NCBI GenBank assembly: GCA_051439505.1
Contig: JBFRWI010000132.1
Coordinates: 1 to 64,000 of the forward strand
DNA from: Hormoscilla sp.
GTDB lineage: Bacteria; Cyanobacteriota; Cyanobacteriia; Cyanobacteriales; Desertifilaceae
DNA length: 64,000 nt
Direction: 5' to 3'
Position 1 is the stretch's first letter, and each line of letters starts with the position of its first letter. The position numbers and the translations under genes were made by a program. Below are positions 43,616 to 61,565 of this stretch, piece after piece. The notes below the pieces were generated by a model. That model ran no database searches. It saw only the letters and a program-made list of their open reading frames with translations, and was not told the DNA's origin.

Positions 43616-45475
43616 TTAAAATAGTAAGTCGAGATCGAATTCTCTGAGATCCAGCAGTCTAAATACACCCCCTGTACCCTCAACTGTAGCAATCATCAGA
43701 CCAGAAGTATGAAACGGGGCGATCGCACTTATCTGCTGCTGTACATCAATCTTCCCCACCACCGTTCCCTGCCGATCCAACAAGATAATTTTTCCCAGCA
43801 TATCAGCAACCACATAACCCCAGGATGTGGCCGCCAGGAATTTGGGATCGGGTAAGTCCACTTTCACCTGCCGGATGCGAAAAGGCTTGAGGTCGATTAA
43901 TAGTAGAGATTTCTGGTTATTTGCTTGGGTAGCTAGCAGTCGATACTGTACCCCAGCAGCAGCGATCGCCCGATCCAGCAGCACTGGCAGCATCCAGCGG
44001 CCCACCTTAGTGCCCCGCCGGGTAAAAACCGACAGTTGCGTCCCGGTCTTACCAGAAGCTAACGCCGCCACATGCCGTGAATCAAGCACCAGTAGCTGAG
44101 ATGGTGCCGATTTCAGTTCCACAGCGATCGATTTAGGATGAATAGTCAAGGTTTGACCGCCAGTTATGTGAGAGCCGATTTCCCAATCCCGCAAATCGAA
44201 CAGCCGTAATTGCTTGTCAGAAGTAGCTGCTGCTATCCAACGTCCTCTGGTTTCGACATCTGCCACAAATTCACCGTCTTCTTTGGTTATCAATCCGATC
44301 GAAACAACTGAGTACTCATAGGTTTCATAGCTGAGGAAATAAATCGATCGCTCGGCGATCATAAAACATCCTTGTGGAGAGCCGAGCAATTTTTGCATCG
44401 ACTCACTCAGATGCACCCGAGACAGATGAAATGTTTCACCCCTATTGATTCCATCTGGATAAATCTGACATTCCACAACCGCTCCTGCGGCCCAATATAC
44501 CTTATCTAGAGATTTAACATCTTCAGACTCTTTCCCAGATGCTGTTTCCTGTGAAGATACCACTGCCAGAGCAGTTATAGGCGCTCCAACCCGCTTAGTC
44601 CAAACAGCCCGGTCTCCTACTGGCACATCAGGCAAAACCTCCGACCCATGGCTCAAAGAATAAGTTGATTTCTCGGAGGACTTCATCCGTTCAACTGCTA
44701 CTTGAATTGCCTGCAACATGTCTGATGCTGTATGATATCGGCGAGCTGGCAGCTTTTCTAAAGCCGTAGCGATCACCCGTTGCAAATCTTCAGGCACGTA
44801 GTTGGGAATCTCCACCCGCTGGTTCAGATGAGCTGTCATTAGCTGGCCAGGTGCCCCCGAAAAAGGCCGATCGCCCACCAGCAATTCAAATAGCATAATA
44901 CCTACAGCATAAATATCACAGCTAATATTATATTGGCCGTAAAACCGTTCGGGAGCCATGTAAGCTGGAGAACCCGTATTATCCTCAGATTCTATCATCT
45001 CCTGAGTTAAGCGGGCTATGCCAAAATCGGAAATCCGGGCGATCGGGCCACCTGGCCTTAAATTGAGCAAAATATTATCTGGCTTGATATCGCAATGAAC
45101 AATGCCACGACTATGGGCATGGTCCAAACCCGCAAGCACCTCTGTCATCAGCCTCAAATTCTGCTCCCAAGACAAAGGCGAATCTGACTCCATCCAAGTC
45201 CGCAGAGTCCCGCCCTCGCAATAATCCATCACCAAGTAGCGACCCCTATTACTATGCTCGATCGCCCTAAAGGTGACGATATTAGGATGCTGTAAGCTCA
45301 ACAGAAAGCGCAACTCCCGCAGAAACTTATTGGTGGGGAATCGATACTTGTCTAAATCTTTCAGAGCTACGAGCTGACCTGTTTGGCGATGACAACCGCA
45401 GAATACCCGACCAAATTGCCCTTGTCCCACCAGTCCCAATATCCTGTACTTGGATAATTGTGATTTTCTGTTCAT
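43616..45475 (-). CDS. Ser/Thr protein kinase (SpkG-like) with beta-rich C-terminus
   Basis: GQGQFG, VALK, HCDIKPDN, DFG, YMAPE. Confidence 0.9.
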   Translation of the reverse strand: MNRKSQLSKYRILGLVGQGQFGRVFCGCHRQTGQLVALKDLDKYRFPTNKFLRELRFLLSLQHPNIVTFRAIEHSNRGRYLVMDYCEGGTLRTWMESDSPLSWEQNLRLMTEVLAGLDHAHSRGIVHCDIKPDNILLNLRPGGPIARISDFGIARLTQEMIESEDNTGSPAYMAPERFYGQYNISCDIYAVGIMLFELLVGDRPFSGAPGQLMTAHLNQRVEIPNYVPEDLQRVIATALEKLPARRYHTASDMLQAIQVAVERMKSSEKSTYSLSHGSEVLPDVPVGDRAVWTKRVGAPITALAVVSSQETASGKESEDVKSLDKVYWAAGAVVECQIYPDGINRGETFHLSRVHLSESMQKLLGSPQGCFMIAERSIYFLSYETYEYSVVSIGLITKEDGEFVADVETRGRWIAAATSDKQLRLFDLRDWEIGSHITGGQTLTIHPKSIAVELKSAPSQLLVLDSRHVAALASGKTGTQLSVFTRRGTKVGRWMLPVLLDRAIAAAGVQYRLLATQANNQKSLLLIDLKPFRIRQVKVDLPDPKFLAATSWGYVVADMLGKIILLDRQGTVVGKIDVQQQISAIAPFHTSGLMIATVEGTGGVFRLLDLREFDLDLLF

Positions 45476-45508
45476 TGTTCATTGCTAATTGCTAATTGAG
45501 AATTGACA

Positions 45509-45595
45509 ATTTGCCTCGTTACCTGGGGACCGCCTGGTAACGCCATTACCCATTTGCCTCGTTACCTGGGGACCGCCTGGTAACGTCATTCCCCA
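45509..45595. repeat. Tandem duplication of a hairpin repeat
   Basis: atttgcctcgttacctggggaccgcctggtaacg x2; a related inverted copy lies near 37391-37418. Confidence 0.75.
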
Positions 45596-46255
45596 TTAGC
45601 TATTAACTAGCTTTTGCATTATTTCTGCATGTTCCATCTGGTTTTCTACCATTTCTGAAACTGGCTTCAACCTTTCTTCTAACCCCAAGACAAATTGATT
45701 GCCTTCTGCTCCCAACGATTCGCAGCTCGTTTGGATGCACTCTAGTTCTTTGCCCGTCAACTGGCTAAAGAATGAACTCAAAACTCCCGCATCCAGAAAA
45801 CATGCCGGGATATCGCCTTTAGGAGCATGAGCTGCAAAGGGCGAATTCACAATTTTCACCACCAAAAATCCTTGCTGATGGTAGCTATTGTCCAAATCTA
45901 TTTTACCCCAACCGTGGGTTTGCCAGCATTGTTGCAGGCATTGGACAAACTCCACCATTGCCATCTCCGCCAGGGGCTTTTTATAGTAGTCGCTCAGTTC
46001 TTCACAGAAGCGAGCGTAGAAATTTTCCCCCCACCAGCGACCGCAGTTATACAATACTAGACGGGATGCTTGACCTGTTTCCTTGTCCAATCCCGAATAT
46101 ATCGCTTGCAGTAGGGTTTCTGGCATGGCTATCAGGCGATCGCCCCGGCGATTTTCCAGCAAACCCATTTCCAGTTCGCTGCGCACGTATACGTCGCTCG
46201 CAAAGTAATTCCCGGGTATGCTCTTATCTACGATCAAATCGGCTACCGAAATCAT
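45596..46255 (-). CDS. V4R domain protein
   Basis: HGWGKID, PACFLDAG, ECIQTSCESLGAEGNQF. Confidence 0.85.
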   Translation of the reverse strand: MISVADLIVDKSIPGNYFASDVYVRSELEMGLLENRRGDRLIAMPETLLQAIYSGLDKETGQASRLVLYNCGRWWGENFYARFCEELSDYYKKPLAEMAMVEFVQCLQQCWQTHGWGKIDLDNSYHQQGFLVVKIVNSPFAAHAPKGDIPACFLDAGVLSSFFSQLTGKELECIQTSCESLGAEGNQFVLGLEERLKPVSEMVENQMEHAEIMQKLVNS

Positions 46256-46310
46256 TTCCCCAATTCCTTTTTCTCCTGTACCTCAACTTTTCTGGCGTCC
46301 CAAATGGCAG

Positions 46311-46772
46311 CTATTCATTGAGCAACGTTTCTTTCGCTATTGTTAATGACGGTTTGAGTAAGCCTAGCTGTTCTTTACTCATGACTTGACTTAATTGCTG
46401 CCAGAGCAATCTATACAGTTTTGTCTCTATCTGTGAACTATTGTAAGTCTCCACAATTACATCTAGCCAACCCAGGAATCTCTCCTTGACAAACGACTCG
46501 TCATTCAGCAGCATTGCCATTCCACAATAGCGCAGCATCAGCATAGCATTTTTTAAGCTCCGTTCTAAATCGCTTGTTTTTTCCTTGGGTAGTTGCGCTT
46601 CCAACTGGGAAGCTACTGCTTCCATAATCTCTAGTTCCTTGTCTCGCAGATGCTGATATGTTTCCACGCGAGATGGTAATGATTCTACATACTGGCCGAT
46701 GATTTTCAGTTCTTCGGGTTTGAGATAACGACTTTCTGCTTCGTTAAAAATTGCTTCAAGTTTTGGATGCAT
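46311..46772 (-). CDS. Phycobiliprotein-like (globin-fold) protein
   Basis: EAESRYL..EL and LRYCGMAMLLND resemble phycobiliprotein helices. Confidence 0.75.
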   Translation of the reverse strand: MHPKLEAIFNEAESRYLKPEELKIIGQYVESLPSRVETYQHLRDKELEIMEAVASQLEAQLPKEKTSDLERSLKNAMLMLRYCGMAMLLNDESFVKERFLGWLDVIVETYNSSQIETKLYRLLWQQLSQVMSKEQLGLLKPSLTIAKETLLNE

Positions 46773-46796
46773 AAATTTTTACGTGTGACATTCCTT

Positions 46797-47111
46797 TCAG
46801 AACAGACTGGAAAAATCATCCAGAGTAAATTCATTGGAGCCGGACTCTGCTGCTGGAGCGCTCGTGTCTGGCACTGGCGCTGCTACTTGCTTTCCTTCCC
46901 AAGCGAAGCAGCTAAAAAACTGACGCACGCTCAGCATCTGCGACAGCGGTTCGTTGCTTCCTTGCCAGGCCGCCTGCTTGATCTGCTGTACTAATATCGG
47001 CTGTAGATCCCAGTTGACCGCTGTAAAAAACTCTCCGACTGACCTTCGCAGCCATTCTTTTGAGATTCCTGCTACCTTACCATTTTGCTCCCCTATTGTC
47101 AACTGATTCAT
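46797..47111 (-). CDS. Small hypothetical protein of the V4R operon
   Basis: Internal repeat SVGEFFTAVNW / SVRQFFSCFAW; ATGA overlap with the upstream gene. Confidence 0.75.
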   Translation of the reverse strand: MNQLTIGEQNGKVAGISKEWLRRSVGEFFTAVNWDLQPILVQQIKQAAWQGSNEPLSQMLSVRQFFSCFAWEGKQVAAPVPDTSAPAAESGSNEFTLDDFSSLF

Positions 47112-47806
47112 AGCAGTCGTTCTCCTGAACGTAAGCGTTTTTCGATATCCCGAGCTGTGGCCCCCTCATTCAGCCAGAACCCAGCTGCATCAATCCGGTC
47201 TTTCCCGCCGATCAGGAATTTACAGTAAGTTTCGCCCATCGAGTAGCATTGGATTTCAATGCAGCTGAGTTGTTTGCGCACCAGTTCTGTAAAGAAGCCT
47301 GCGAATAGACCGGCGTATAGGTGGCAAACTGGCTTGCCCACATCTCCCAGGGTGCGGGCCACAGCCGAATCAAACAGGTTGATGAACATAAATCCCTGCT
47401 TGCGATCGCCCATATCCACTTCCCAACGACCCCAACCCTGAGAAGTAAACGGCCACCACCATGTTTCTAGTAAAAACATCAAGTTTGATTGCCGCATATT
47501 GCGTTCAAACTCTTTTTCAAACCACTTTTCAAAGAAGAAAGCATCTTTTTGGCCCCATTCGCAGCCGATCGTATACATAATAGCGGCTGAGGCATCTCCC
47601 ACTTCCTCCTCTAACCCTTCTACCAGACCGATAATGAAGTCTTCCGAAGTGAGGACGTTTTGAGCCCCATTCCAGTCTACGATGCTGCCCCGGTCCTGGT
47701 CGAACTGAAAAAAATCACCAAAGCCATAGTGATTGTGCTTCTTGGGGTACTTCTGCTTCAGTTTGTGCAGTAAGGGATTTGTATCTACCATAGTATGCCT
47801 AGCCAT
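47108..47806 (-). CDS. V4R domain protein
   Basis: QGWGRWEV, PVCHLYAGLFAGFF, CIEIQCYSMGETYCKF. Confidence 0.88.
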   Translation of the reverse strand: MARHTMVDTNPLLHKLKQKYPKKHNHYGFGDFFQFDQDRGSIVDWNGAQNVLTSEDFIIGLVEGLEEEVGDASAAIMYTIGCEWGQKDAFFFEKWFEKEFERNMRQSNLMFLLETWWWPFTSQGWGRWEVDMGDRKQGFMFINLFDSAVARTLGDVGKPVCHLYAGLFAGFFTELVRKQLSCIEIQCYSMGETYCKFLIGGKDRIDAAGFWLNEGATARDIEKRLRSGERLL

Positions 47807-47881
47807 GCGTGGTTAATTTGTCAAGGAGCGGAAATATCCAATCGTGCTCTACTATCGCCTAGTTCTCCTAGATGAGCGAAC

Positions 47882-48364
47882 TCAGGCATCCGTTGTCTTA
47901 GTCAAGTACGATCCGATCTGGAAGTCAGTATTTTCCAACTGCTTTAGGGTCGAGCGTGTGATCAGCTTGCCTGACTCTACCAGCACTTCGCCGGTGACTG
48001 GATGAAGCATATTCGTTTGGGCGCGACGACCAATAAGGGCCTCAATGTCCTGCAAGGATTTCACATACATCCCCGGAGGCAGTTCGACGACGACACCGTC
48101 TTGCAAAACTCTCGATTGGCAAGCTAGTCGGGAATTGGGCTTACAAGAGGTAATAATCTCTAGAGTACGTTGTTCGCGGCGAGACATGGCCGAAAGGAAA
48201 TCCATGCCCTGCTTGATATACACGTGGCAGGTAGCACACATACCCCGTCCGCCGCATTCCTTGAGCACATCTAATTCCGTATCAATCAGGATAGACAGGA
48301 GATTGCCATTGGTTTCCACCTCAGTGAAGGTGGAGATCGGTTCTAGCTTGACAATTTTGACCAT
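47882..48364 (-). CDS. 2Fe-2S ferredoxin with C-terminal extension
   Basis: CGGRGMCATC...RLACQ (Cx5Cx2C...C). Confidence 0.9.
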   Translation of the reverse strand: MVKIVKLEPISTFTEVETNGNLLSILIDTELDVLKECGGRGMCATCHVYIKQGMDFLSAMSRREQRTLEIITSCKPNSRLACQSRVLQDGVVVELPPGMYVKSLQDIEALIGRRAQTNMLHPVTGEVLVESGKLITRSTLKQLENTDFQIGSYLTKTTDA

Positions 48365-48398
48365 TTATACCTTCTCCGTTTGCGCGTTGGCCTATTGA

Positions 48399-49283
48399 CT
48401 AGGGTAACAACAGTTCTTTTTGTTGGGGGTTGAGGGCTTTTTGCTCAACTAGGGCGGGGAAGTCGCGGATCACCTTGGCACATCTGTTGATGAATGCTGC
48501 TACCCAGGACTGAATCGAGGAGATTTCCTGCTCTGTGACTTCCCCAGACTCTGACTGGGAGGACTCACCATTGAAGCTAATTTCCGCTTTGCGGTTGACT
48601 TGGAAGTGGTTGAGCCACTCAATATTCTGCGGGCGAGAAGTCTTCCAGTAATTGCTAATCACAGCTACTCCTAGGTATTGCGTGGTGAACTCAGACAGCT
48701 GATTGAGGGCTGCCAGAATTTCTTTGAGGGTAACTTGGTGCGTCCCATTCTTGGCGTCCGGTTGCGGCGAGGCGGCGTCATGGAAGCCATTGCGCGAACC
48801 GGTAGATGTGCCTGATGCTGTTTTTGCTACGGGAGCGGGGACAGCTGCGGTTTGCCCGGGCTTGGTCCCGTCGGAGGCAGCAGGCTTCCAGTACTCTTGA
48901 CCCGACAGGGTGATATTACCAGCTAGCAGGCGAAATGTGGCTACACCCGTGGAGAGGTCGGCGCTCAGTGCTGCTTTAAGTTTTTGCAGAGCCGGTAAAT
49001 AATCGGAGTAGACTAGACCGCTGCTAGTCAGCACCAGCAGGATCATGTCGGAAGCTAGTTTGTAAATATATACTTGGTGTGCTGCGAATTGAAATTCAAA
49101 AGACTCAAAGCTCTCAGGCGTCGTCTCCACTACCTGGCGGATGCCCTGAGCTAGGGCTTCTTTTTGCTGAAAGTTCAGGGCGCTATCCACGCCACAAAAG
49201 TAGGGGCGCGATCGCCTATCCATTAAGGCCACACCCGCAATTCCTGGTAAATTCAGAAAGTCCTTGACTACCTCCCGGTTCAT
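48399..49283 (-). CDS. Hypothetical protein, first gene of the V4R operon
   Basis: 294 aa; two domains joined by an Ala/Pro/Ser/Thr-rich linker. Confidence 0.75.
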   Translation of the reverse strand: MNREVVKDFLNLPGIAGVALMDRRSRPYFCGVDSALNFQQKEALAQGIRQVVETTPESFESFEFQFAAHQVYIYKLASDMILLVLTSSGLVYSDYLPALQKLKAALSADLSTGVATFRLLAGNITLSGQEYWKPAASDGTKPGQTAAVPAPVAKTASGTSTGSRNGFHDAASPQPDAKNGTHQVTLKEILAALNQLSEFTTQYLGVAVISNYWKTSRPQNIEWLNHFQVNRKAEISFNGESSQSESGEVTEQEISSIQSWVAAFINRCAKVIRDFPALVEQKALNPQQKELLLP

Positions 49284-49586: not shown

Positions 49587-50642
49587 ATGTCTGATGACCT
49601 TCGTTTCACTTTAGAGCAATTACGGATTCTCAAAGCGATCGCCGCTGAGGGCAGCTTCAAGCGTGCTGCTGACAGTCTCTATGTCTCGCAACCGGCAGTT
49701 AGCCTGCAAGTGCAAAACTTGGAGCGGCAGTTAGAGGTGCCTTTGTTCGACCGGGGGGGCCGACGCGCTCAACTGACGGAAGCTGGCCATCTGCTGCTCA
49801 ACTACGGAGAAAAAATCCTGTCCCTGTGCCGGGAAACCTGTCGGGCGATCGAGGATCTCCAAAATCTCCAAGGTGGCACCTTGATAGTTGGCGCTTCCCA
49901 GACGACGGGGACTTATTTACTGCCCCGGATGATTGGTTTGTTCCGGTCTCGGTATCCGGATGTGGCCGTGCAATTACACGTTCATTCTACCCGCCGCACC
50001 TCTTGGAGCGTTGCCAATGGACAAGTTGACTTGGCTATAATTGGTGGTGAGGTTCCTGCTGAACTGCAAGAGTCTTTAGAAATTACTCCCTATGCTCAAG
50101 ATGAACTGGCTTTAATCTTACCTGTATTTCATCCTCTAGCAGCCTACCAGACCATTGAGCCTTCCGATCTCTACCAACTCCAGTTTATTGCCTTAGATTC
50201 CCAATCGACGATTAGAAAGGTGATTGACCAGGTTCTCACCCGTTGCGGCATCGATACTAGCAATCTCAAAATTGAGATGGAGTTGAATTCGATCGAAGCG
50301 ATTAAAAATGCGGTACAGGCGGGATTGGGCGCTGCCTTTGTCTCAGTTTCGGCAATTGAGAAGGAGTTGCAAATGAAACTCCTGCATCGAGCCAAAATTT
50401 CAGGGGTAGTGGTGCAGCGGATGCTGTCTGTGATTGTTAACCCGAATCGCTACCGCTCTAAGGCCGCAGAGGCTTTTAGCCGAGAGATCCTGCCCGGGTT
50501 TGCGATCGCAGGTTCCTTGGTGTTAACAGCAGAAACTACGGAACCCACACCGATCGCCACCGCTCCTGCGGCAGATGCCAAGCAGGAGCAAAGCTACCCA
50601 GCAGAAAGTATAGCAAAGGTTGTCAAAGATGCTCCGTCGTGA
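49587..50642 (+). CDS. LysR-family regulator (RbcR/Ycf30-like)
   Basis: [48 protein letters not shown]. Confidence 0.9.
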
Positions 50643-51208
50643 GCGAGGAATAATTGACAACGAACAAATACAACTGACAATGGATGTTTACTGCTTTTGC
50701 AGAACCTGTAGGATGCCTCTCAAACTGCTGGGACTCGGTGGGTTGGGCACGGCTTTCCATGGGCCGTGGTGAAGCGCCAGGGATTAGCATGGGAATATGG
50801 GGCATGATGTTGGGCGGAGCGATCTCCAGTCCCGCCGGTGGATCTCAAGCACGGATTTGTTGATTGTTACTGGTGTCACTGGGAGCGATGGTTTGATTTT
50901 TCCCCTTTTTGCGCCGCTCACTTCCCATTGAGATTGTCCTGGTAGTGACAATCTTGCCAGGGGCATCTATGGTTGCTGTAACAGCTATATATATTCCTCC
51001 TGATTTACAGACCGTGACGCGCGAATTCTGTTGCACAACTACATTATGTCAATCGGGCGATCGCAATAGTTGATACTGACGATGAAAAATCCCAGTTGAA
51101 AACTAACAATTTACAACTATCAATTTACAACTATCATCTCCTCTTTGGTGCAACAATTTTGGAGGTAATTAACTCGATAATTGTTAATTATCAAGCTATA
51201 ACTGTATA

Positions 51209-52543
51209 ATGAGCAAATTGAATCAACTAACTCCCAATTCAACCTTGGGTGATTTACCACTGCATGATTTCCAGGTTTCTCCGAAAACTAGAGGCAAGGT
51301 TCTCGCTAATGTTTTTGCCTTTCGACCGGAACTGCCTGGGGCGATCGTGGCCGATCGCTCTGGCATGATTGGCATGATTTCTCGGCGTAGGTTTAACGAT
51401 TGGATGAGTTCTCCCTATGGCATAGATGTTTTTCTCGAAAGTCCGATAGAAATATTTTCTCAGATGATTACTCAGAAGGTAAAATTGTTGCAATTGCCCG
51501 ATACAGAAAAGGTAGAAATAGCTGTAAAACAGGCACTCAGTCGGGCCGCAGAGGACATGTATGAGCCGATCGTTATTGTGTATAAAGACTTAAGCTTGCC
51601 AGATTTTCAAGCCTACTTTTTACTTGATGTTGTCACCCTCATTCTCGCTCAGAACCAAATTTTTACTGTTTTCAAGAAACAAGTCGAACAAGATATTTTT
51701 CAATCAAGCTGTCAATTAAAATTAGTAAAAGAGCACCAAAAAGTAGAGGAATACGATCGAATATTAAAGGAGCAAAAGGCGGCGATTGAAGAACGCAACC
51801 AGCTCTTAGAAATCCAGCGGATTGAACTGGCAAAGAAATCCCAAGAGATTGCTCAACTCAATCAAGGATTTCAGCGAATTGGGCAATTGATGTCTCAAAA
51901 AGCGACAAAAGCGTTTCGAGCTACTTTTTCAGGAGTAAATGTGATTTGTCGCCAGACTAACCAGATTGTGGATATCGGTCGGTTATTAAGTGAAGAATTG
52001 GAGCGAATTCAGGACACTTCCCAACTGATTAAAAAAGTGTCTCAGCAAGTCCGTCATTTAGCAATGAAGGCGGCAATTGTAGCCAATAATGCTGGCACGG
52101 AATTAAATAGTTTTAGCCAGATAACTACTGAAATTGGGAAATTGGTTAGTCAGACTTTTGAAGCTGGGCGTCAGATGGATCGTTCTGCCGATCGCTTCAT
52201 GCAGAAAATCCAAGAATTTACGGAGTCTGCCCATCGGGGAATGAGGGTGACAAAGTCTCTGATCCAAGAGATCCAACAGGCGGAGATGGCATTAGCGGAG
52301 TTGGAGTCATTGGTGCAACAGCACGACAGTAATTTTAGTCCTGAAAAGGGATCGGAAACTATGACCGCTGCTAAGGACCAAGAGGATCTAGAAGAGATAG
52401 AAAAGGGATCGCTGGCCCTAGTGGAAAAGTTGGCATTAGCAGAGGCGACGCTGTCTGATTTGCAGGAAATGACGCGGTATAAAGATTCTGCCATGATCCT
52501 GCGCAAGATCAGGCGAGCTTTGCATAAATACAAAACTTATTGA
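51209..52543 (+). CDS. Soluble protein with CBS-like N-terminus, coiled coil and degenerate MCP-like signalling region
   Basis: PELPGAIV..GMISRRRF; VRHLAMKAAIVANNAG...FSQITTEIGKL resembles the MCP hairpin LALNAAIEAARAG...FAVVA.EV.KL. Confidence 0.7.
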   Translation: MSKLNQLTPNSTLGDLPLHDFQVSPKTRGKVLANVFAFRPELPGAIVADRSGMIGMISRRRFNDWMSSPYGIDVFLESPIEIFSQMITQKVKLLQLPDTEKVEIAVKQALSRAAEDMYEPIVIVYKDLSLPDFQAYFLLDVVTLILAQNQIFTVFKKQVEQDIFQSSCQLKLVKEHQKVEEYDRILKEQKAAIEERNQLLEIQRIELAKKSQEIAQLNQGFQRIGQLMSQKATKAFRATFSGVNVICRQTNQIVDIGRLLSEELERIQDTSQLIKKVSQQVRHLAMKAAIVANNAGTELNSFSQITTEIGKLVSQTFEAGRQMDRSADRFMQKIQEFTESAHRGMRVTKSLIQEIQQAEMALAELESLVQQHDSNFSPEKGSETMTAAKDQEDLEEIEKGSLALVEKLALAEATLSDLQEMTRYKDSAMILRKIRRALHKYKTY

Positions 52544-52741
52544 ATGTTGGCTAGGCAGAATTGTGCAACCCAAAAATAGAATTAGATTAGATTTCGGCGT
52601 TGCACAACGACACCGATGATGAGGGCTGCTAATTGCTTATACTTCGTCCTCTGCCAGAGCGCAAATTTTAACAATTGGCTGCTATCATCGGTAAAAATGT
52701 GCAACAATCGACTTTCACTATTGTTCAAGCAGAAATTAAGG

Positions 52742-54223
52742 ATGAAAGATAGAGGATATAATAATTTGTTAGGATGGGGCAAGTATCGTAAAATTCTGAT
52801 ATCTGTGGCTCTGTTTCTGACTTTTGACCTCGGGGTTTTGATCCCGAATTTGCTCGTCTCTTCCCAACTAAAACAAGATGCGATCGGCATCAACCTCTCA
52901 GGTCGTCAGCGCATGCTTTCCCAACGCACGGTCAAAGCATTGCTGCTACTGCAACTTGCCCATCAGGCTAATAAAGATATTACTGTGGCTCAACAAGAAC
53001 TGGCGATCGCCTACAAGTTGTTTGACCAAACTCTGACTGCTTTCAATTCCGGTGGCATGGTAACGGGCGGTGACGGACAAGCTGTTTTTCTCGCATCTGT
53101 GGAGAGTGACAAGGCCAAGAGTCTCGTCAAACAGGCCCTGGAGATTTGGCTCCCTTATCAGCAGAAATTAATCCCTATTTTAACTGCGGAAAATACTATT
53201 GACCCAGAAAAGCTGGCTATTGCGATCGCCTATGGCCAACAGCAGAACCGGCAACTATTGTCCTTAATGAATAGCTTGACATTTGAATTAGAACAGATTG
53301 CCAATCACAAAGCTACCAATTTGCAGCTATTTCAAACTATTGGGATACTTCTGGCATTGTTAAACTTTTTTATTCTCTTGTATCACACCTTAATAAAATT
53401 AAAAGCTAGCGATGCCGAAATCGCCCATGCCCATGAGAAAATATCGGCCCTGAACCAGCAATTAACAGCGGAAAATCTCCGCCTAAATGCGGAGATAGAC
53501 GTGACGCGGAAACTGCAACAGATGATCCTACCTAAAGATCGGGAACTGAGTAAAATTAGAGATTTAGATATTGCTGGCTTTATGGAACCAGCGGCGGAGG
53601 TAGGTGGAGACTACTACGACGTGCTTCACAGCAATGGTCGAGTAAAAATAGGCATCGGCGATGTTACAGGACATGGGTTAGAATCAGGAGTATTGATGAT
53701 TATGGTGCAGACGGCAGTGCGCACTCTTCTGGCCAATAATGAAACGGACCCGGTGAAGTTTTTGAATGCTCTCAACAGCACGATTTACAATAACGTGCAG
53801 CGGATGAATTCTGAGAAAAACCTCACCCTCTGCTTACTAGATTACTCTGGTGGAGTTATTAGTTTGAGCGGACAGCATGAGGAGATGATTGTGGTGCGCT
53901 ATAGCGGTGTGGTAGAATGTATTGATACGATCGACCTCGGTTTCCCGATCGGGCTGGAGTCCGACATTACCGATTTCGTCGCTTCCACGAGGGTAGAGTT
54001 GCAGCCAGGGGACGTGGTGGTGCTGTATACTGATGGGATTACCGAAGCGGAAAATCCGCAAGGAGAGTTCTACGGACTAGAGAGGCTGTGTGAAGTAGTC
54101 AAGCAAAACTGGCAAGGTGATGCTGCTGACATCAGGCAGGCGGCGATCGCGGACCTGCGGCAGCATATTGGGGAGCAAAAGCTGTATGATGACATTACTT
54201 TGCTAGTCATCAAGCAAAAATAG
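52742..54223 (+). CDS. Membrane sensor: NarX/PilJ-type periplasmic domain plus SpoIIE/PP2C phosphatase
   Basis: TM1, INLSGRQRMLSQR, TM2, coiled coil, VGGDYYD, GDVTGHG, YTDGITE, DDIT; start taken at the ATG at 52742. Confidence 0.88.
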   Translation: MKDRGYNNLLGWGKYRKILISVALFLTFDLGVLIPNLLVSSQLKQDAIGINLSGRQRMLSQRTVKALLLLQLAHQANKDITVAQQELAIAYKLFDQTLTAFNSGGMVTGGDGQAVFLASVESDKAKSLVKQALEIWLPYQQKLIPILTAENTIDPEKLAIAIAYGQQQNRQLLSLMNSLTFELEQIANHKATNLQLFQTIGILLALLNFFILLYHTLIKLKASDAEIAHAHEKISALNQQLTAENLRLNAEIDVTRKLQQMILPKDRELSKIRDLDIAGFMEPAAEVGGDYYDVLHSNGRVKIGIGDVTGHGLESGVLMIMVQTAVRTLLANNETDPVKFLNALNSTIYNNVQRMNSEKNLTLCLLDYSGGVISLSGQHEEMIVVRYSGVVECIDTIDLGFPIGLESDITDFVASTRVELQPGDVVVLYTDGITEAENPQGEFYGLERLCEVVKQNWQGDAADIRQAAIADLRQHIGEQKLYDDITLLVIKQK

Positions 54224-54270
54224 CAGGCTCTCAGTTTCAACTCGCTAATAGGTATGAACGCTCTTCTGAT

Positions 54271-56766
54271 GTGATTGTGACAGATATTCTCTGGATCCTA
54301 GCTTGTTCGGGCTTGGTCTTCCTGATGCAACCGGGATTTATGTGCCTGGAGTCAGGGCTAACCAGGTCGAAAAACAGCATCAATGTTGCTATCAAAAATA
54401 TGGCCGACTTTGGCGTTTCCGCCGCCTTATTTTGGGTGTTTGGTTATGCCCTGATGTTTGGACCCTCCCTCTGGGGGTGGATAGGATCGGCAGGATTTGT
54501 CTTACATATAGAGTCTAACTCAGAACTAGCAGCCTTCTTTTTATTCCAGGCGATGTTTTGCGGCACCGCTACCACTATAGTATCTGGCGCTGTGGCAGAG
54601 CGGATGAAGTTTGCTGCCTATCTGCTCGTCGCTGGTTTAGTTTCCAGTCTGATTTATCCCATATTCGGTCATTGGGTATGGAACGGGGCCCTGTCGGGCA
54701 GCTTGACTGGCTGGCTGGGAAAAATGGGCTTTGTAGATTTTGCTGGCTCCACCGTGGTTCATAGCGTTGGCGCATGGGTTTCCTTAGCTGCTTTGCTGGT
54801 GGTCGGACCCCGCGTGGGCCGCTTTACCTACTCGGGGCGATCGCGCAAGATCCACGGTTCTAACCTGCAGCTTGCTGTCTTGGGGGCAATGCTGCTGTGG
54901 ATCGGTTGGATGGGGTTTAACGGTGGCAGCACCCTGGCCTTAAACGAGCAGGTAACCAGCATTATCGTCAATACGATCCTGGCTGGGACAGCTGGCATGA
55001 TTACTGCCGCCGCGATCGGTTGGCATCAGCGCCAAATACCGGAAGTAGAAATGCTGATTAATGGGTCGATCTCGGGGCTAGTATCGATCACCGCTTCCTG
55101 TCATGCCGTGACCACCCCACTGGCGGTGATTATTGGAGCCATTGGCAGCGCGGTGATGCTGTTGGTGGCCTATTGGTTACAGCGCTATCGGATTGATGAT
55201 GCTGTCGATGCCGTGGCGGTTCACGGGGGAGCCGGTGTTTGGGGCACCTTGGCAGTCGCCTTGTTTGGTCAGCCGGAGTTACTCAACACCGGTCTCTCTC
55301 GGTTGGCCCAGCTAGGGGTGCAGCTGTTGGGAATTTTAGTTTGTTCCTGTTGGGCATTTTTATTGACATATTGCCTATTGTCTGTTATTGATAAATTCTT
55401 AGCTCTGCGGGTTTCTCCCCAAGAAGAAAAGATCGGTCTGAATATATCAGAGCATCGGGTTAAAGCGGAAATTTACGATCTTCTCCAAGTCATGGAAGAC
55501 CATGTAAAAACGCAAGATTTAAGCTTGCGGGTGCCCGTGGAACCCTTTACTGAGGTAGGGCAAATTGCTTCTCGTTATAACCAGGTGATGGATGCCCTAC
55601 AGTCAGCATTTACGGAAACACAAGCTGTTGTCCAAATGGCAACAGATGCGATTATTACCTTCAGCAAACCCTCAATCAAAATTATCACAGCTAACCCCAG
55701 TGCCTCCAGAATATTTGGGTATCATCTCAGTCGTTTAGTGGGGATGGATATCTCAGGATTGCTGATTTTGCCAACTGGGATTACGCCAAACAAACTGCTG
55801 CAATATTTATTGACACCAGGACGTCATGAAATAGCCGGGCGTCGTGCCACAGGTGAGCATTTTCCTCTGGAAGCTACCGTAACGGAAGTTTTGTTAGGCG
55901 ATCGCTCTTTCTACACGGGCACATTTCGCGACATCAGCGATCGCAAACTGGTAGAAGCGGAACTGGCCAGGGCACACGAAGAAATCTCTGCCCTCAGCCA
56001 GCGTCTGCAAGTGGAAAATATCCGCCTGACTGCCGAACTAGATATCACGCGCCAACTGCAACATATGCTATTACCCAAGGATTCCGAACTGGAACAAATT
56101 CCCGGGTTAGATATTGCTGGCTTTATGGAACCAGCTAATGAGGTAGGGGGCGACTACTACGACGTATTGCAGCACAATGGACGAGTCAAAATTGCCATTG
56201 GCGATGTCACGGGACATGGACTAGAGTCAGGGGTATTGATGATTATGGTGCAAACTGCTGTGCGGACTCTGCTGGAAAACAATGAAACCGATCCCGTGAA
56301 ATTCTTGTCTACCCTCAACCACACGATTTACGACAACGTCCAGCGAATTAATTCCGATAAAAACCTTACCCTCTGCTTGCTAGACTATCAGTCTGGCAGA
56401 CTGCATTTGAGCGGACAGCATGAAGCGCTGATTGTGGTGCGATCGGGCGAAAAGGTAGAACTGATTGATACAATAGATTTAGGCTTTCCCATTGGACTGG
56501 AAGCAGACATTACTGATTTCATCGCCTCTGCTGAGGTGCAGTTACACCCAGGAAATGTGGTGGTGCTGTATACTGATGGGATTACCGAAGCAGAAGATAT
56601 TCATAAAGTCCAATATGGACTAGAGAGGTTATGTGAAGTGGTCCAGCAAAACTGGCTGCGATCGGCTGCCAAAATCAGGCAAGCGGTTATTGATGACGTG
56701 CGATCGCATATCGGCCAGCAAAAGGTATATGATGATATTACCTTGGTAGTAATTAAGCAAAAGTGA
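54271..56766 (+). CDS. Ammonium transporter (Amt) domain fused to PAS and SpoIIE/PP2C phosphatase
   Basis: LMQPGF..LESG, SGAVAER, DFAGSTVVH, GFNGGS, DDAVDAVAVHG; PAS NPSASRIFGY...FRDISDRK; PP2C motifs intact. Confidence 0.93.
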   Translation: MIVTDILWILACSGLVFLMQPGFMCLESGLTRSKNSINVAIKNMADFGVSAALFWVFGYALMFGPSLWGWIGSAGFVLHIESNSELAAFFLFQAMFCGTATTIVSGAVAERMKFAAYLLVAGLVSSLIYPIFGHWVWNGALSGSLTGWLGKMGFVDFAGSTVVHSVGAWVSLAALLVVGPRVGRFTYSGRSRKIHGSNLQLAVLGAMLLWIGWMGFNGGSTLALNEQVTSIIVNTILAGTAGMITAAAIGWHQRQIPEVEMLINGSISGLVSITASCHAVTTPLAVIIGAIGSAVMLLVAYWLQRYRIDDAVDAVAVHGGAGVWGTLAVALFGQPELLNTGLSRLAQLGVQLLGILVCSCWAFLLTYCLLSVIDKFLALRVSPQEEKIGLNISEHRVKAEIYDLLQVMEDHVKTQDLSLRVPVEPFTEVGQIASRYNQVMDALQSAFTETQAVVQMATDAIITFSKPSIKIITANPSASRIFGYHLSRLVGMDISGLLILPTGITPNKLLQYLLTPGRHEIAGRRATGEHFPLEATVTEVLLGDRSFYTGTFRDISDRKLVEAELARAHEEISALSQRLQVENIRLTAELDITRQLQHMLLPKDSELEQIPGLDIAGFMEPANEVGGDYYDVLQHNGRVKIAIGDVTGHGLESGVLMIMVQTAVRTLLENNETDPVKFLSTLNHTIYDNVQRINSDKNLTLCLLDYQSGRLHLSGQHEALIVVRSGEKVELIDTIDLGFPIGLEADITDFIASAEVQLHPGNVVVLYTDGITEAEDIHKVQYGLERLCEVVQQNWLRSAAKIRQAVIDDVRSHIGQQKVYDDITLVVIKQK

Positions 56767-56983
56767 CCCGATCGACTGCTATGATATAAATTTGATTTGC
56801 ATAACCGGGGCCAAGCCCCACGCGACTGCTGCCGACTTCAACTGACAAAAAATCAGGGCGAATTTATCACCCTCTTGATGGGTAATTTGACAATAGTGCT
56901 AGCTCTCAGTTATAATAAAAAGTAGGGTGGGCACCGCCCACCAGCACCGCCCACCAGTAGCTATACTCATCGCATCATCAACA

Positions 56984-57451
56984 ATGAACAATCTCGCGAA
57001 CAGTCCCGATATCGCCCATATATCGAAACTCAAGCAATTGTCGATCGGGCTTCCGGAGAAAATCCCATACATGAGGATGCTAGTATTGTTTGGTTCGAGG
57101 GCCAGGGGCGATACCCATGCCAAAAGTGATTGGGACTTTGCCGCAGTTTACGATGAAGAAATTCGTTATCTTCAGATTAAAGATAATGGTTTTCGCTGGT
57201 TTGAAGTGCCGCATTTGCTGGGGGAAGCTTTTGCACTCAATCCAGATATGATTGATGTCGTAGATTTAAATAAATGCTCGTCACTGATGGCCCATTATGT
57301 AGCACGTGATAGTATCCTATTATATGAAAAGGATGCGGGTCTCTTTGATGGTTTTCGGTCAAGGGCCTTAAAAAGTGATGCCGAACTGAACGCCATTCGC
57401 AAGGCCCTTAGAGAACAAGTTGAACAAAATTTACAAAGGTGGGGTGTATGA
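56984..57451 (+). CDS. MNT minimal nucleotidyltransferase antitoxin
   Basis: LFGSRARGD..KSDWD (GSx10DxD); start taken at the ATG at 56984. Confidence 0.88.
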   Translation: MNNLANSPDIAHISKLKQLSIGLPEKIPYMRMLVLFGSRARGDTHAKSDWDFAAVYDEEIRYLQIKDNGFRWFEVPHLLGEAFALNPDMIDVVDLNKCSSLMAHYVARDSILLYEKDAGLFDGFRSRALKSDAELNAIRKALREQVEQNLQRWGV

Positions 57452-57879
57452 CTGAAATTGATCCGGATATTGTTATAAATAAGCTAGTTTTTTTAGATAA
57501 ATATCTCAAAAAATTAGCTGACTTTGAGGATTTCAATCTGTCGGAGTATCTCAAGGATTTCAATCAGCAGTTAGTTGTAGAAAGACTGCTACAGTTAACC
57601 ATTCAAGTGGCGCTAGATATCAATAGATATTTACTCAAGCAACTTGAAATAGAGCAGCCCGAGAGTAATTTTGCAACATTTATAGAGGTTGGCAACTGTG
57701 GAATCATTACACCGGAGTTAGCAAAAGTATTAGCCCCTTCGGGAAGTTTACGTAATCGACTGGTTCATCTTTACGAAGAAATAGATCCGATGCGAGTACA
57801 TACCGATATTAATATAGCGTTGCAATATTATCCAATTTATCAAAGACAGGTGACAATTTACTTAGATTCGTTAGAATAG
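57448..57879 (+). CDS. HEPN (DUF86/HepT-like) RNase toxin
   Basis: RNRLVHLY (Rx4HxY); ATGA overlap with the MNT gene. Confidence 0.9.
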   Translation: MTEIDPDIVINKLVFLDKYLKKLADFEDFNLSEYLKDFNQQLVVERLLQLTIQVALDINRYLLKQLEIEQPESNFATFIEVGNCGIITPELAKVLAPSGSLRNRLVHLYEEIDPMRVHTDINIALQYYPIYQRQVTIYLDSLE

Positions 57880-58001
57880 GCTAATACCATTTTTGTAAAT
57901 ATCCCAGGTAGAACCTGGGAACGAAAGAATTTAGCCCGCGCAGGCGGGCTTTGTTTGTGTAGCCGGACCCTTTAGGGTTCGGGCGGGCGAGGCAGATTAC
58001 A

Positions 58002-59504
58002 TTAAAAGATTCCTCGGGCAGTATTCTCCACAAGATAGCCCTTCGATGCAATGAGATTAAGCCCCATCAAATCCCCTGGCTGAAGCTTTGGCAACTGCTG
58101 CACGAGGTCGAGAAAATTATCCTGTTCTTGACTGTCGATGATTCCTTCAGTCAAGGTCTTGAACTTGTTGATATAATCAGGTCGCTGAAACGGTCGCGCA
58201 CCATAGGAATGTGCATTTGCTACCGCTAGTTGGTCTTCCAGCTTAGAACCATCAGTAAATAAGACCTCAACCCGTGCCCCAAAGGCTCGTTCTTTGGGAT
58301 CCCGACTGTGATAGCGTCGCGTCCATTCGGGATCTTCCAGCGTGCGGACCTTCTGCCAAAGGCGAACCGTATCTTCCCGCTGGGCCCGTTCGGGGGTATA
58401 AGAATCAAAGTGATGCCAGCGTCCGTCTTGCAGGGCCACCGCAAAGATGTACATAATCGAATGATCTAGGGTTTCCCGGGTGGCCTTGGGGTTCATCTTC
58501 TGGGGATCCCCCGAACCCGTACCGATGACATAATGGGTTTGATGGCTGCCGTGAATCACTATTTCCTTAATCTTCTCGAAGTCGTCAATTTTTTCTCCTA
58601 GGCGAAATGCTAAATCGATCAGTCCTTGGGCTTGATACTCCGCAGAATGTTCCTTGGTGTAAGATTCCAGAATTGCTCGCTTGGGTTCCCCAGGTTCCGG
58701 GAGTGGCACCTCATATAGCGCATCTGGTCCGCTTAAAATCCAAGCAATAATACTGTCTTCCCCTTCGTAAATTGGTGATGGGGAACCCTCTCCCCGCATG
58801 CAGCGATCGACCGCTTCCAGCCCATTCTTGCCAGCATAGGCGGGGGCATAGGCTTTCCAGCTAGATATGTCCGCCTTGCGAGATTGTCGGGTGGTAATTG
58901 TCGTGTGGGCCGCCTGCTGAACGGCTTGGTAGATCGTTTCGGTATCCAGTCCTAACAGGGTGCCGATCGCCGCAGCTGCCGATGGTCCCAAATGAGCAAT
59001 ATGGTCGATCTTGTGCTCGTGAAGACAAATTCCTTTCACCAGATCGATCTGAATTTCATAGCCCGTAGCAATACCGCGAATCAGATCGGCTCCACTACAA
59101 CCGCATTGTTGAGCTGCTGCGATAATGGAGGGAATATTATCCCCCGGATGGGAGTAATCAGCAGCATGGAAAGTGTCGTGAAAGTCCAGTTCCCGTACAG
59201 CCACACTATTGGCCCAGGCTGCCCATTCTGCACATACTTTTGTTTCTGGGGGAACGCCAAATATTGTCGCACCACCACTGCGTAAATGAGCTAAGGCTTG
59301 AGCCCGGGCCGTTTGGACTGAATGATAGTTCAATGCCGCACATGCTGCTGCGGCATTGTCGATGATGCGGTTGATAATCATTTCCACAACGTCGGAGTCA
59401 ACCGCCACGGTATCTGATGCCACGGCGGCAATTTTCCAGGCCAACTGCTCTTCCCGGGGCAGGTATTCTTTAGAGGGATAGGTTCGGACTTGATTAATTT
59501 TCAT
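58002..59504 (-). CDS. prpD: MmgE/PrpD family protein (2-methylcitrate dehydratase-like)
   Basis: [50 protein letters not shown]. Confidence 0.85.
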
Positions 59505-59529
59505 GCTTTTTTCGGCTGTGGAAGTCTGA

Positions 59530-59572
59530 GAATTGAAAATTGAAAATTGAAAATTGAGAATGGAGAATTGAG
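59530..59572. repeat. Heptamer repeat (gaRaatt) about x6
   Basis: Read directly. Confidence 0.7.
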
Positions 59573-59684
59573 CTATTTTCCTTTCGACCTTCGCCCGACC
59601 TTAGCAATTATTCATATTTATTGCTAAGATGAAAAGTGAGATTATCCCATCCTCATCTTAATCCTCACATTCTTATTCAACGGG

Positions 59685-60437
59685 TTAGTATCGCAATGCA
59701 CCGCCGTTGATGTGAAGAGTTTGACCCGTAATGAAACTTGCTGCATCCGAGGCTAAAAAGACGCACATCTTGGCGATCTCTTCGGGTAGTCCCAAGCGTC
59801 CTTGGGGGACCATGGCAATTCGTTTTACCGTTTTTTCATCTGTGGAGGTTCCGAGGGTCGTATCTATGAGTCCTGGAACAATATGATTGACTGTAATTTT
59901 TTGTTTGGCTAATTCCACCGCTAAAGCTCTCGTCAGGCCGAGTGCTCCCATTTTCGAGGCGCAGACGTGAGACCATTCGGTACGACCGATGAAGGCATTG
60001 AGTCCCGATACATTAATAATCCGACCCCAGCCAGTAGCTATCATACTGGGCACGACGGCTCGACAACAGAAAAAGGGACCGTCCAAGTTGCCCGCCAGGA
60101 CGCTGCGCCACTCCTCTGTCGTCATCTCGGTTATCGGGCTCGATCGCCGCAGTCCGGTATTATTCACCAGAATATCAATTCGACCAAACTCTTCCAATAC
60201 CCGTGCTACCATAGCCTGAACTTGGCTTTCATCACCGACATCAGCCAGTAGGGGGATGGCCTTTACTCCTAATGCTTCCACCTCCTTTGCCGTAGATTCC
60301 GCTTCTTCGGCACTGGTGCGGGCATTGACCACCACATCAGCACCTTGCCCTGCCAGTTCCAGGGCGATCGCGCGACCGATATTCCGGCTGGAGCCAGTCA
60401 CTAGCGCTACTTTCCCCTGTAAATCTCTTTGAGTCAT
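59685..60437 (-). CDS. Short-chain dehydrogenase/reductase (FabG-like)
   Basis: TGSSRNIG, DILVNN, HIVPG, FITGQTLHING; start moved to the ATG at 60437. Confidence 0.9.
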   Translation of the reverse strand: MTQRDLQGKVALVTGSSRNIGRAIALELAGQGADVVVNARTSAEEAESTAKEVEALGVKAIPLLADVGDESQVQAMVARVLEEFGRIDILVNNTGLRRSSPITEMTTEEWRSVLAGNLDGPFFCCRAVVPSMIATGWGRIINVSGLNAFIGRTEWSHVCASKMGALGLTRALAVELAKQKITVNHIVPGLIDTTLGTSTDEKTVKRIAMVPQGRLGLPEEIAKMCVFLASDAASFITGQTLHINGGALRY

Positions 60438-60572
60438 ACTTAAATCCCTAAAACTTTTCCTTTTACTGTCGCTGATTTTTTCCCTTCTGACAACTGACAA
60501 CTATCAACTGACAACTGGCAACTTTGAATGGTGGGCGGTGCCCACCCTACCAATCCCCAATCGAAGCCCTCC

Positions 60573-61565
60573 TCAGCTATCTTTAATGGGGGAGATGGCG
60601 AGATAACCCTGTCTCAAGTATTTCTTAATTTTTTTATCTGCTGCCTTAAAAGCTGGCATCCCTTTGTACTCACCTGCCACTACATGAGCATTTGTCTCCG
60701 CCGTTCCCAGAAATGACTCCATTGTTGCCAGGTATTCCTCTATTTCTGAGAGTCTCGGTGAATAGACCTTATTTATGAATTCCAACTGTTTTGGGTTGAT
60801 GGACTTTTTCCCCGTGAACCCAAATATATTACAGGAAAGCAGGGCCTCGTTGCGAGCCTTCTCTGGATCGTTAAATTTTGCCGAAACGCTGTCAAATAGA
60901 TCCAGCCCGTATTTCTTACCTGTCATAGTAATGATACCTAGAATTTGCTGAAACAGGGGACTTTCACAAGTAGAGATTCGCTCCACACCCAGATCTGTAG
61001 ACATATCCCCTATGCTAAAACCCAGGCCATCCCGTCCTCTTCTGAGAACCTTGGCAATCTCCTCTATTGCCTGTAAACCGGCTATCGTTTCTATAGAAAC
61101 GATATAATTCTTATCTTCTCCAATCGTTTCCATGAGTCGTGCAATCTCATGACCTGATTCCCCCTTAGCGATGGTAACTGCATCAAAAGGAAACTGGGCG
61201 ATCGCCTTAATATCCTCTTCTAGCTCCTGAGGGTCTCCAGAATTTATTCTCACTATATACTCTACCGGTCCTGGTTTCGGCGGGATTTGGGAAATGCTCT
61301 CCCGCGCGACTTTTTTGAGATCGTAAGGGATGCTGTCCTCTAAATCCCAGATAATCCCATCTGCTGGGATTTCATTGTTTGCCACTTTTTCTCGGAATCG
61401 CGGCTTATTCAGAGGCACGAACAGATGAGACCGTCGTTTGAACTCAGTGCAGAACTCCCTGTCCGAGCAGTAGCCCTCTATATACCCATATAGCTTTTCC
61501 GATATTTCCAAGGGCCTCCTCTGCTCTGCCTCTGCCAGTACACAATCAAGCTCTAATTTTCCCAT
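60573..61565 (-). CDS. HpcH/HpaI aldolase / citrate lyase beta (CitE-like) family protein
   Basis: RRSHLFVP, DLEDSI, VRIN, IET..GL, GFTGKKSINPKQ. Confidence 0.82.
   Translation of the reverse strand: MGKLELDCVLAEAEQRRPLEISEKLYGYIEGYCSDREFCTEFKRRSHLFVPLNKPRFREKVANNEIPADGIIWDLEDSIPYDLKKVARESISQIPPKPGPVEYIVRINSGDPQELEEDIKAIAQFPFDAVTIAKGESGHEIARLMETIGEDKNYIVSIETIAGLQAIEEIAKVLRRGRDGLGFSIGDMSTDLGVERISTCESPLFQQILGIITMTGKKYGLDLFDSVSAKFNDPEKARNEALLSCNIFGFTGKKSINPKQLEFINKVYSPRLSEIEEYLATMESFLGTAETNAHVVAGEYKGMPAFKAADKKIKKYLRQGYLAISPIKDS

Follow-up and report, generated by a model that had tools for sequence, protein, structure and literature searches.

Cyanobacterial nitrogen sensing is taught as an internal process that depends on 2-oxoglutarate, PII and NtcA. 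The closest described systems to the locus considered here are the nitrate receptors McpN (a PilJ-type methyl-accepting chemotaxis protein, MCP), NarX and NarQ (histidine kinases), the ammonium receptors Sd-Amt1 (Amt-HAMP-GGDEF; structures 8QJ3, 8QJ4 and 8QPF) and Ks-Amt5 (Amt-histidine kinase; 6EU6), and the SiaA/SiaB/SiaC(/SiaD) system of Pseudomonas, in which a membrane sensor phosphatase of the PP2C family is combined with a GHKL-like kinase and a STAS-like phosphoprotein. In this study we analysed two adjacent genes, A and B, located in a 64,000-nucleotide stretch of Hormoscilla sp. (contig JBFRWI010000132.1, positions 1 to 64,000; the window), which join a nitrate-type and an ammonium-type input domain, respectively, to PP2C/SpoIIE domains. 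The reading that fits best makes them two of several inputs to a partner switch of the Slr1658/Slr1659 type, and not a stand-alone nitrogen-status system.

Genes A and B compared with described receptors

Both genes lie on the plus strand, gene A at 52742..54223 (493 amino acids, aa) and gene B at 54271..56766 (831 aa), and are separated by 47 bp (54224..54270), a spacer that is spanned by one contig of a relative with about 92% identity and in which no terminator-like site was listed. An alternative in-frame ATG for gene A is present at 52616, the start in relatives falling near 52742. An earlier examination of the letters by themselves (the sequence-only reading) had described two co-oriented genes 47 bp apart with PP2C/SpoIIE ends, one beginning with a motif-bearing periplasmic domain and the other with a complete Amt domain, and the gene coordinates and Pfam domains (a PilJ domain in A, PF00909 in B) match this description.

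The gene A product, a nitrate-type sensor phosphatase by signature, has a transmembrane-PilJ-transmembrane-coiled coil-PP2C arrangement, Pfam recognising PilJ (PF13675) at residues 39–143 (E 6e-10) and SpoIIE (PF07228) at residues 298–491. Its periplasmic four-helix PilJ/NarX-type domain (52856..53338, plus strand, residues 39–199) is enclosed by hydrophobic segments at residues 18–36 and 200–218 (transmembrane segments 52793–52849 and 53339–53395), and this layout, the N-box/P-box and the G-x-x-R motif are shared with McpN, NarX and NarQ. Unlike these proteins, gene A has no detected HAMP domain, a PP2C output, a cyanobacterial host and Ser at position 4 of the N-box. The N-box itself, INLSGRQRMLSQ (52889..52924, plus strand, residues 50–61), fits 11 of the 12 positions of that of McpN, G54 and R57 being the counterparts of the McpN nitrate ligands G58 and R61, with G-x-x-R kept; the resemblance to a nitrate-binding box that had been claimed earlier is therefore borne out as a published residue signature. 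The Ser variant is common to 55 of the 119 homologues of the gene A sensor, and across all 21 aligned PilJ-PP2C proteins the box is unchanged save at positions 1, 4 and 11. In a profile search with the sensor the sole solved structure with E<0.001 was the McpN ligand-binding domain (McpN-LBD, 6GCV; E 2.4e-5), and a Foldseek search with the sensor model (predicted local distance difference test score, pLDDT, 86.6) returned nothing at E<=0.001, its leading rows being McpN and NarQ.

In a neighbour scan for nitrogen genes covering three proteobacterial loci (L112, L113 and L209), the gene A sensor subfamily adjoins ntrB/ntrCD, a NarK-like transporter (below cut-off) or nirB, and at a fourth proteobacterial locus cyanase is nearby. 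In proteobacteria (L112, L113, L171, L177, L181 and L209) this N-box subfamily is fused to Hpt-HATPase (CheA-like) and followed by a gene of about 153 aa, often within nitrate transport or assimilation clusters; this arrangement is possibly an undescribed nitrate signalling unit. The genome studied here also encodes two other intact N-box receptors, a PilJ-histidine kinase-REC-Hpt protein (G000:C10:1767-4556) and a PilJ-MCP protein in a chemosensory cluster (G000:C226:20702-22156).

The gene B product has an Amt-HAMP-PAS-coiled coil-PP2C arrangement and is an ammonium-receptor-type phosphatase by signature, with Amt (PF00909) at residues 7–397 (396 of 399 model positions), PAS at 450–557 and SpoIIE at 636–829. 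Its Amt receptor domain (54289..55461, plus strand) has Q20, E27, N43, D46, F47, T102 and S105 as ligands of the N1/N2 sites, K42 and Y117 as switch residues and N264 as the exit residue, and retains the Trp/Ser pair W137/S220, the Phe gate F96/F216 and the twin His H164/H318. Residues 20–105 match the strict ammonium-receptor (AmR) signature QX6EX15NX2D[F/T]X54-60TX2[S/T], taken from a passage of PMC11152129, so that the claim of ammonium-type sensing also holds at the level of published residues. A plain Amt on contig C197 of the same genome fails this signature and an Amt-kinase on contig C63 meets it; of 54 Amt-PP2C relatives in which the N-terminus is present, 43 match a slightly looser form and most of the remaining 11 carry L, V or C for F/T. 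The closest solved structures are Sd-Amt1 and Ks-Amt5, which share with gene B the complete Amt, the N1/N2 ligands, the K/Y switch, the exit Asn and the HAMP-like linker; N264 and F23/E27 agree with these non-conducting receptors and not with Af-Amt1. The linker (55465..55611, plus strand, residues ~399–447) received no Pfam call but aligns with the Sd-Amt1 HAMP up to Sd-Amt1 residue 449, that HAMP being modelled as residues 404–450 in the relevant passage of PMC11152129. It is an addition to the domain list of the sequence-only reading and forms, together with PAS and SpoIIE, the transducer fused to the C-terminus of the Amt domain. Gene B differs from Sd-Amt1 and Ks-Amt5 in its PP2C output behind an extra PAS domain (55618..55941, plus strand), which is FixL-like in sequence. 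The heme-binding His of FixL lies in a PAS helix whose aligned counterpart in gene B has no His, leaving heme or oxygen sensing by this domain unsupported. A second protein of ammonium-receptor type, the Amt-HAMP-PAS-histidine kinase at G000:C63:3656-6403, has an Amt domain 72% identical to that of gene B, and such Amt fusions outnumber Amt-PP2C in the phylum sample.

Each module is known: gene B qualifies as an ammonium receptor by its sequence, and gene A would work like McpN/NarX. Phosphatases are not among the outputs that PMC6381276 gives for N-box proteins, and the main text of the Sd-Amt1 and Ks-Amt5 papers makes no mention of a phosphatase output for ammonium receptors; further sources were PMC8199190, PMC7647112, PMC5764959 and PMC12589917. 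Both fusions are already in databases under generic names. In literature searches, no paper came up that describes either the Amt-PP2C or the PilJ-PP2C fusion or connects them with Slr1658/Slr1659, though the Amt-fusion review of Tremblay and Hallenbeck (2009) may list such proteins.

A candidate shared target on contig C53

The PP2C/SpoIIE domains of A (53528..54220; D290, D307, G310, D431, G432, D483) and B (56071..56763; D628, D645, G648, D769, G770, D821), both on the plus strand, score 143 and 137 bits on PF07228 against a cut-off of 25, with all metal-binding aspartates intact. The closest solved PP2C to gene A is 6K4E, and six conserved residues coincide with those listed for SiaA, the same six being kept in B. 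At 75.4% identity the two domains are as closely related as had been claimed, but this is not particular to the pair, a paralogue on contig C43 being 73.8% and 73.0% identical to them. The assembly (6.47 Mb, 93% complete) holds five close PP2Cs of this subfamily (62–75% identical), with PilJ, Amt, REC, dCache-histidine kinase-REC and ETR1_N inputs, and four distant ones (22–29% identical), two of which sit on contigs with canonical STAS genes (C165 and C57).

For these five phosphatases the genome contains only one slr1658/slr1659-type pair, found on contig C53. It consists of a slr1658-type (SiaB-like kinase) gene (C53:35378-35959, minus strand), above the NF052618/NF047703 cut-offs, and, 3' of it, a slr1659-type STAS gene (C53:35000-35344, minus strand), above that of NF047705; the pair scores 264 and 170 bits on NF047703 and NF047705 (cut-off 100) and so belongs with Synechocystis Slr1658/Slr1659. 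The sequence-only reading had proposed one shared Ser/Thr-phosphorylated target without naming it, and the single Slr1659-type STAS protein on C53 is likely to be this target. Five lines of evidence lead to it: the number of paralogues for a single pair, their co-occurrence, linkage of the genes at other loci, a relic on C53 with remnants in congeners, and a conserved serine together with a predicted complex.

Of 41 genomes, 23 contain both Slr1658 and a PP2C of the subfamily and 18 contain neither, with no discordant case and joint loss in all four congeners; these genomes are kin, so the count overstates independence and does not represent 41 separate events. Slr1658- and slr1659-type genes lie within 7 kb of 38 of the 73 subfamily PP2C loci, which come from many phyla, and near 8 of the 15 Amt-PP2C loci. 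The PP2C subfamily with such neighbours is also found in rhizobia, Beggiatoaceae and spirochaetes. Among the side observations at these loci, eight rhizobial ones (L082, L084, L089, L091, L097, L100, L102 and L103) have a PP2C-slr1658-slr1659 triad with a sensor phosphatase of about 780 aa, and in Spirochaeta (L109:5513-8404) the subfamily PP2C and a Slr1658-type domain apparently share one open reading frame, followed by a slr1659-type gene.

In this genome the pair and the two phosphatase genes are on different contigs, and traces of a former association can be recognised. The tail of gene B (56662..56727, plus strand) has a copy on C53 at 36046-35981, 21 nt before the slr1658-type start, with 61 of 66 nt (92%) identical (E 1e-20; the next best paralogue reaches 79% over 48 nt). 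In all four congeners remnants of gene A adjoin slr1658/slr1659 remnants, and they lie 3' of one and the same LysR gene or of the spacer upstream of it; in a contig of run X1 a PP2C end lies about 200 nt ahead of slr1658-slr1659-crp. Taken together, the relic, the congener remnants and the X1 contig indicate that A, B and slr1658/slr1659 formerly constituted one cluster that was split in this genome, though a lost paralogue whose tail resembled that of B could instead have left the C53 relic.

The presumed acceptor, S63, is unchanged in all 27 aligned Slr1659-type proteins, and its motif is equivalent to the T68 motif of SiaC. A complex predicted for the PP2C dimer of gene A with the Slr1659-type STAS protein scored 0.67, compared with 0.00 for the best control, the controls being unrelated proteins and not the genome's nine other STAS-domain proteins; in this model S63 contacts D307 and D431. 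The mark used for such complexes is attained by 116 of 157 solved pairs and 2 of 215 mismatched pairs, contact agreement between runs was at least 92%, and the partner pLDDT was at least 87.

The proposed circuit would work in the manner of SiaABC without membership of its families. The shared plan comprises a membrane sensor PP2C, a GHKL-like kinase and a STAS-like phosphoprotein with an equivalent N-S/T-S motif, but the scores on the Sia families remain far below their thresholds (NF038263, 58 and 52 vs 700; NF038262, 23 vs 85; PF09345, 19.7 vs 24.5), the acceptor is Ser and not Thr, and a single target would serve five phosphatases. Next to the C53 genes no SiaD cyclase could be recognised; the adjoining gene encodes a Crp-family regulator on the other strand and the remaining neighbours lay outside the GGDEF scan. 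Synechocystis Slr1658 is known from mutants only, and would here be linked to defined sensor phosphatases.

Proposed circuit, output and rival readings

We consider it reasonably probable that A and B are membrane PP2Cs with nitrate and ammonium signatures, which both dephosphorylate Ser63 of the Slr1659-type STAS protein, its rephosphorylation being carried out by the Slr1658-type kinase. By analogy with McpN/NarQ, one nitrate or nitrite ion would bind at the dimer axis of gene A between the G54/R57 pairs, and by analogy with Sd-Amt1/Ks-Amt5 two ammonium ions would occupy the N1/N2 pocket of the gene B trimer. The signal would then pass through the second transmembrane segment and coiled coil of A, or through the HAMP-PAS-coiled coil of B, and set the activity of the PP2C dimer, with either sign. 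On strong genomic grounds and the predicted complex, the Ser63 phosphate would integrate A, B and the REC, dCache-histidine kinase-REC and ETR1_N phosphatases. In the last and weakest step, the switch would probably tune redox or photosynthetic gene expression, or lifestyle, and not nitrate assimilation.

This last step is suggested by the deregulation of pgr5 in slr1658 mutants and by the absence of intact nirA, narB and nrtP in this assembly, which makes control of nitrate assimilation an unlikely output. At G000:C226:32866-37083, away from the contig ends, nirA is truncated to residues 57–215 of the 624–643-aa congener proteins, narB is in pieces, and two other genes lie between the remnants. 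NrtP gave nothing at E<=1e-8 and >45% identity in the assembly, which also contains no NarK or NrtCD family matches; a second nitrate-assimilation copy may exist in unassembled DNA. Congeners G002 and G004 show the opposite state, with nirA-nrtP-narB intact and the sensors decayed; nirA is intact also in relatives G005 and G008 and split by one stop in G001. The retention of three intact N-box receptors alongside broken nitrate assimilation suggests that nitrate sensing provides a cue here and does not serve assimilation. No nifH was found in the assembly, its lone match being ChlL. Synechocystis Sll0537 is presumably Amt3. A predicted network places Slr1657-1660 with Sll0537 (section 8 of PMC4614683), and no link to Amt is drawn in that paper. 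In Synechocystis slr1658 mutants the recovery from iron limitation is poor and pgr5 is up about 1000-fold, the passages concerned (PMC7555055, PMC6525291) stating the signalling chain as unknown.

Several observations weigh against the circuit, in addition to the kinship of the co-occurrence genomes and the choice of gene A and unrelated controls for the complex prediction. At seven of the 15 Amt-PP2C loci slr1658 is missing from the flanks, which for four of them extend to only 1.5 kb, and the complex score may echo likeness to solved PP2C-STAS-like pairs. With one mismatch, Ser for Ala, gene A falls outside the exact pattern [IVL]-[ND]-x-A-G-x-Q-R-M-L-[ST]-Q; since a published passage gives Ala at position 4 in only 77% of the NarX family, this deviation bars the strict pattern only. 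In the VIA-align fold comparison a non-nitrate PilJ comes out on top (Z 15.0), McpN being third (Z 13.7); the sensor is about equally similar to several four-helix ligand domains, so its ligand cannot be read from the fold alone. The host is seemingly unable to assimilate nitrate, so gene A could be a relic not yet lost. The AmR signature is also present in true transporters, e.g., plant AMT1, according to the passage of PMC11152129.

Some of these points would fit a switch of the same kind in which gene A responds to a different small anion or has survived intact as a leftover, the neighbourhood being just a cluster of interchangeable PP2C inputs. We regard this as unlikely, though it accommodates the state of nirA, narB and nrtP, the decay of the locus in all four congeners, the different PP2C inputs clustered before slr1658 in other genomes and the Ser of the N-box; it is opposed by the near-invariance of the box in PilJ-PP2C proteins, by the two further intact N-box receptors, by the recurrence of the A+B combination in two other lineages and by the codon positions at which gene A departs from the X1 relative, third positions accounting for 21 of the 36 differences listed (a part of the total). 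A dedicated two-gene sensor that steers nitrogen assimilation alongside PII/NtcA, as the sequence-only reading envisaged, seems very unlikely despite two intact signatures in co-oriented genes 47 bp apart whose co-location recurs. Five subfamily phosphatases with unrelated inputs face one candidate target, each architecture is mostly found alone, no intact nitrate assimilation genes accompany the sensors here, and G002/G004 keep nirA-nrtP-narB and have lost them.

Little credence is given to a different substrate, such as a canonical RsbV/SpoIIAA-type anti-sigma antagonist, PII or another phosphoprotein. The nine other STAS-domain matches leave room for it, as does the fact that slr1658/slr1659 no longer adjoin A and B, but the canonical STAS contigs C165 and C57 have their own distant PP2Cs, which suit those targets better, while co-occurrence, relic tail and synteny favour Slr1659. 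Finally, gene B could be mainly an ammonium transporter or transceptor with a phosphatase that is not ammonium-gated, for it has all pore residues of transporting Amts and its signature cluster includes proven transporters; with N264 and F23/E27 as in non-conducting receptors and a separate plain Amt on C197, this is highly improbable.

Distribution, neighbouring genes and significance

Among 400 other genomes of the phylum, the gene A sensor was matched in 8 (on a PP2C in two and on a histidine kinase in four) and full-length gene B in 7, with no genome containing both. PilJ was not a neighbour at any of the 15 Amt-PP2C loci, the gene A sensor was absent from the family in which Amt-PP2C is most frequent (0 of 23 genomes), and Amt was absent from all 80 metagenome loci, which were mostly proteobacterial and many of them short. 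The results for the 400 genomes, the 23 genomes and the 80 loci reject a broadly conserved A-B operon. A plasmid search gave no full-length relative of gene B; a scan of genome contigs with the single sensor sequence gave zero matches, and a second scan was dominated by the PP2C pattern.

The pairing is nevertheless not unique. In run X1, a contig of 1,313 nt with about 92% identity extends from the last part of A across the spacer into B, of which it covers 1 kb; since X1 is an RNA run in contig form that possibly contains DNA, this bridging contig represents adjacency in a relative and not a transcript. Of 24 contig sizes of PilJ-PP2C proteins, five, ranging from 15,822 to 53,394 bp, recur among the 98 of Amt-PP2C proteins, about 0.07 being expected by chance, and we infer from these size matches that A and B types share contigs in two further lineages, 68% and 59% identical to A and 71% and 64% to B, all with the N-box and AmR signature. 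The sequence-only reading had made its proposal depend on the two genes being neighbours elsewhere, and had suggested looking for both architectures across genomes: neighbours are found in the X1 relative, contigs carrying both are indicated by size in these two lineages, and joint occurrence in the 400 genomes is not found. The A+B pairing is rare.

A recent tandem duplication was ruled out as the origin of the pair, the PP2Cs of A and B being no nearer to each other than to the C43 paralogue and not sisters in a quick, unfinished tree. In the P0009/P0140 lineage A-type and B-type PP2Cs are sisters (Shimodaira-Hasegawa-like approximate likelihood ratio test, SH-aLRT, 99), a possible sign that the pair arose separately in that lineage or underwent gene conversion.

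Upstream of gene A, the gene at 51209..52543 (plus strand) has an N-terminal domain joined to a weak MCP-like coiled coil. This domain, without a Pfam match and presumably CBS-like, is 34% identical to that of a PP2C gene upstream of Amt-PP2C in other genomes, and the gene is probably the first of the ancestral cluster. Elsewhere the same domain also heads PP2C, kinase and GGDEF-type proteins, and in the X1 relative the gene upstream of A terminates in a PP2C and not in an MCP-like coil. No exact NtcA box (GTA-N8-TAC) is present in 50601-57000, and a promoter scan was at chance level (11 found vs 10 expected). Directly 3' of gene B (56927-57879), a nucleotidyltransferase and HepT-like toxin-antitoxin pair, its second gene of 36% GC, occupies the position of slr1658/slr1659 in the ancestral order, followed at ~57900-58010 by a 55–70-nt repeat that has dozens of copies per genome in four congeners. 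The window further contains a single-module non-ribosomal peptide synthetase with condensation, adenylation, methyltransferase, carrier and thioesterase domains (5267-10636), minus-strand genes for a PrpD/MmgE dehydratase, a short-chain dehydrogenase-like and a citrate-lyase-like protein (58002-61565), and a cluster of two V4R proteins, a phycobilisome-like globin, a 2Fe-2S ferredoxin and a Ser/Thr kinase (43616-49283), which we take to resemble the slr0144-slr0152 cluster of Synechocystis.

In its broadest form, which we put forward tentatively and hold to be doubtful as a whole, Slr1658/Slr1659 would be a widespread multi-input hub through which some filamentous cyanobacteria read external nitrate (A) and ammonium (B) and set cyclic electron flow and redox genes (pgr5) without PII/NtcA, nitrate serving here as a habitat or host cue. 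If the proposed circuit is true, direct sensing of external nitrate and ammonium would be added to cyanobacterial nitrogen sensing, ammonium receptors would gain a third output type after the kinase and the diguanylate cyclase, and N-box nitrate sensors would gain a phosphatase output. It would also provide the first defined inputs for the little-understood Slr1658/Slr1659 system and a proposed biochemical chain behind Slr1658, the pgr5 regulator of Synechocystis.

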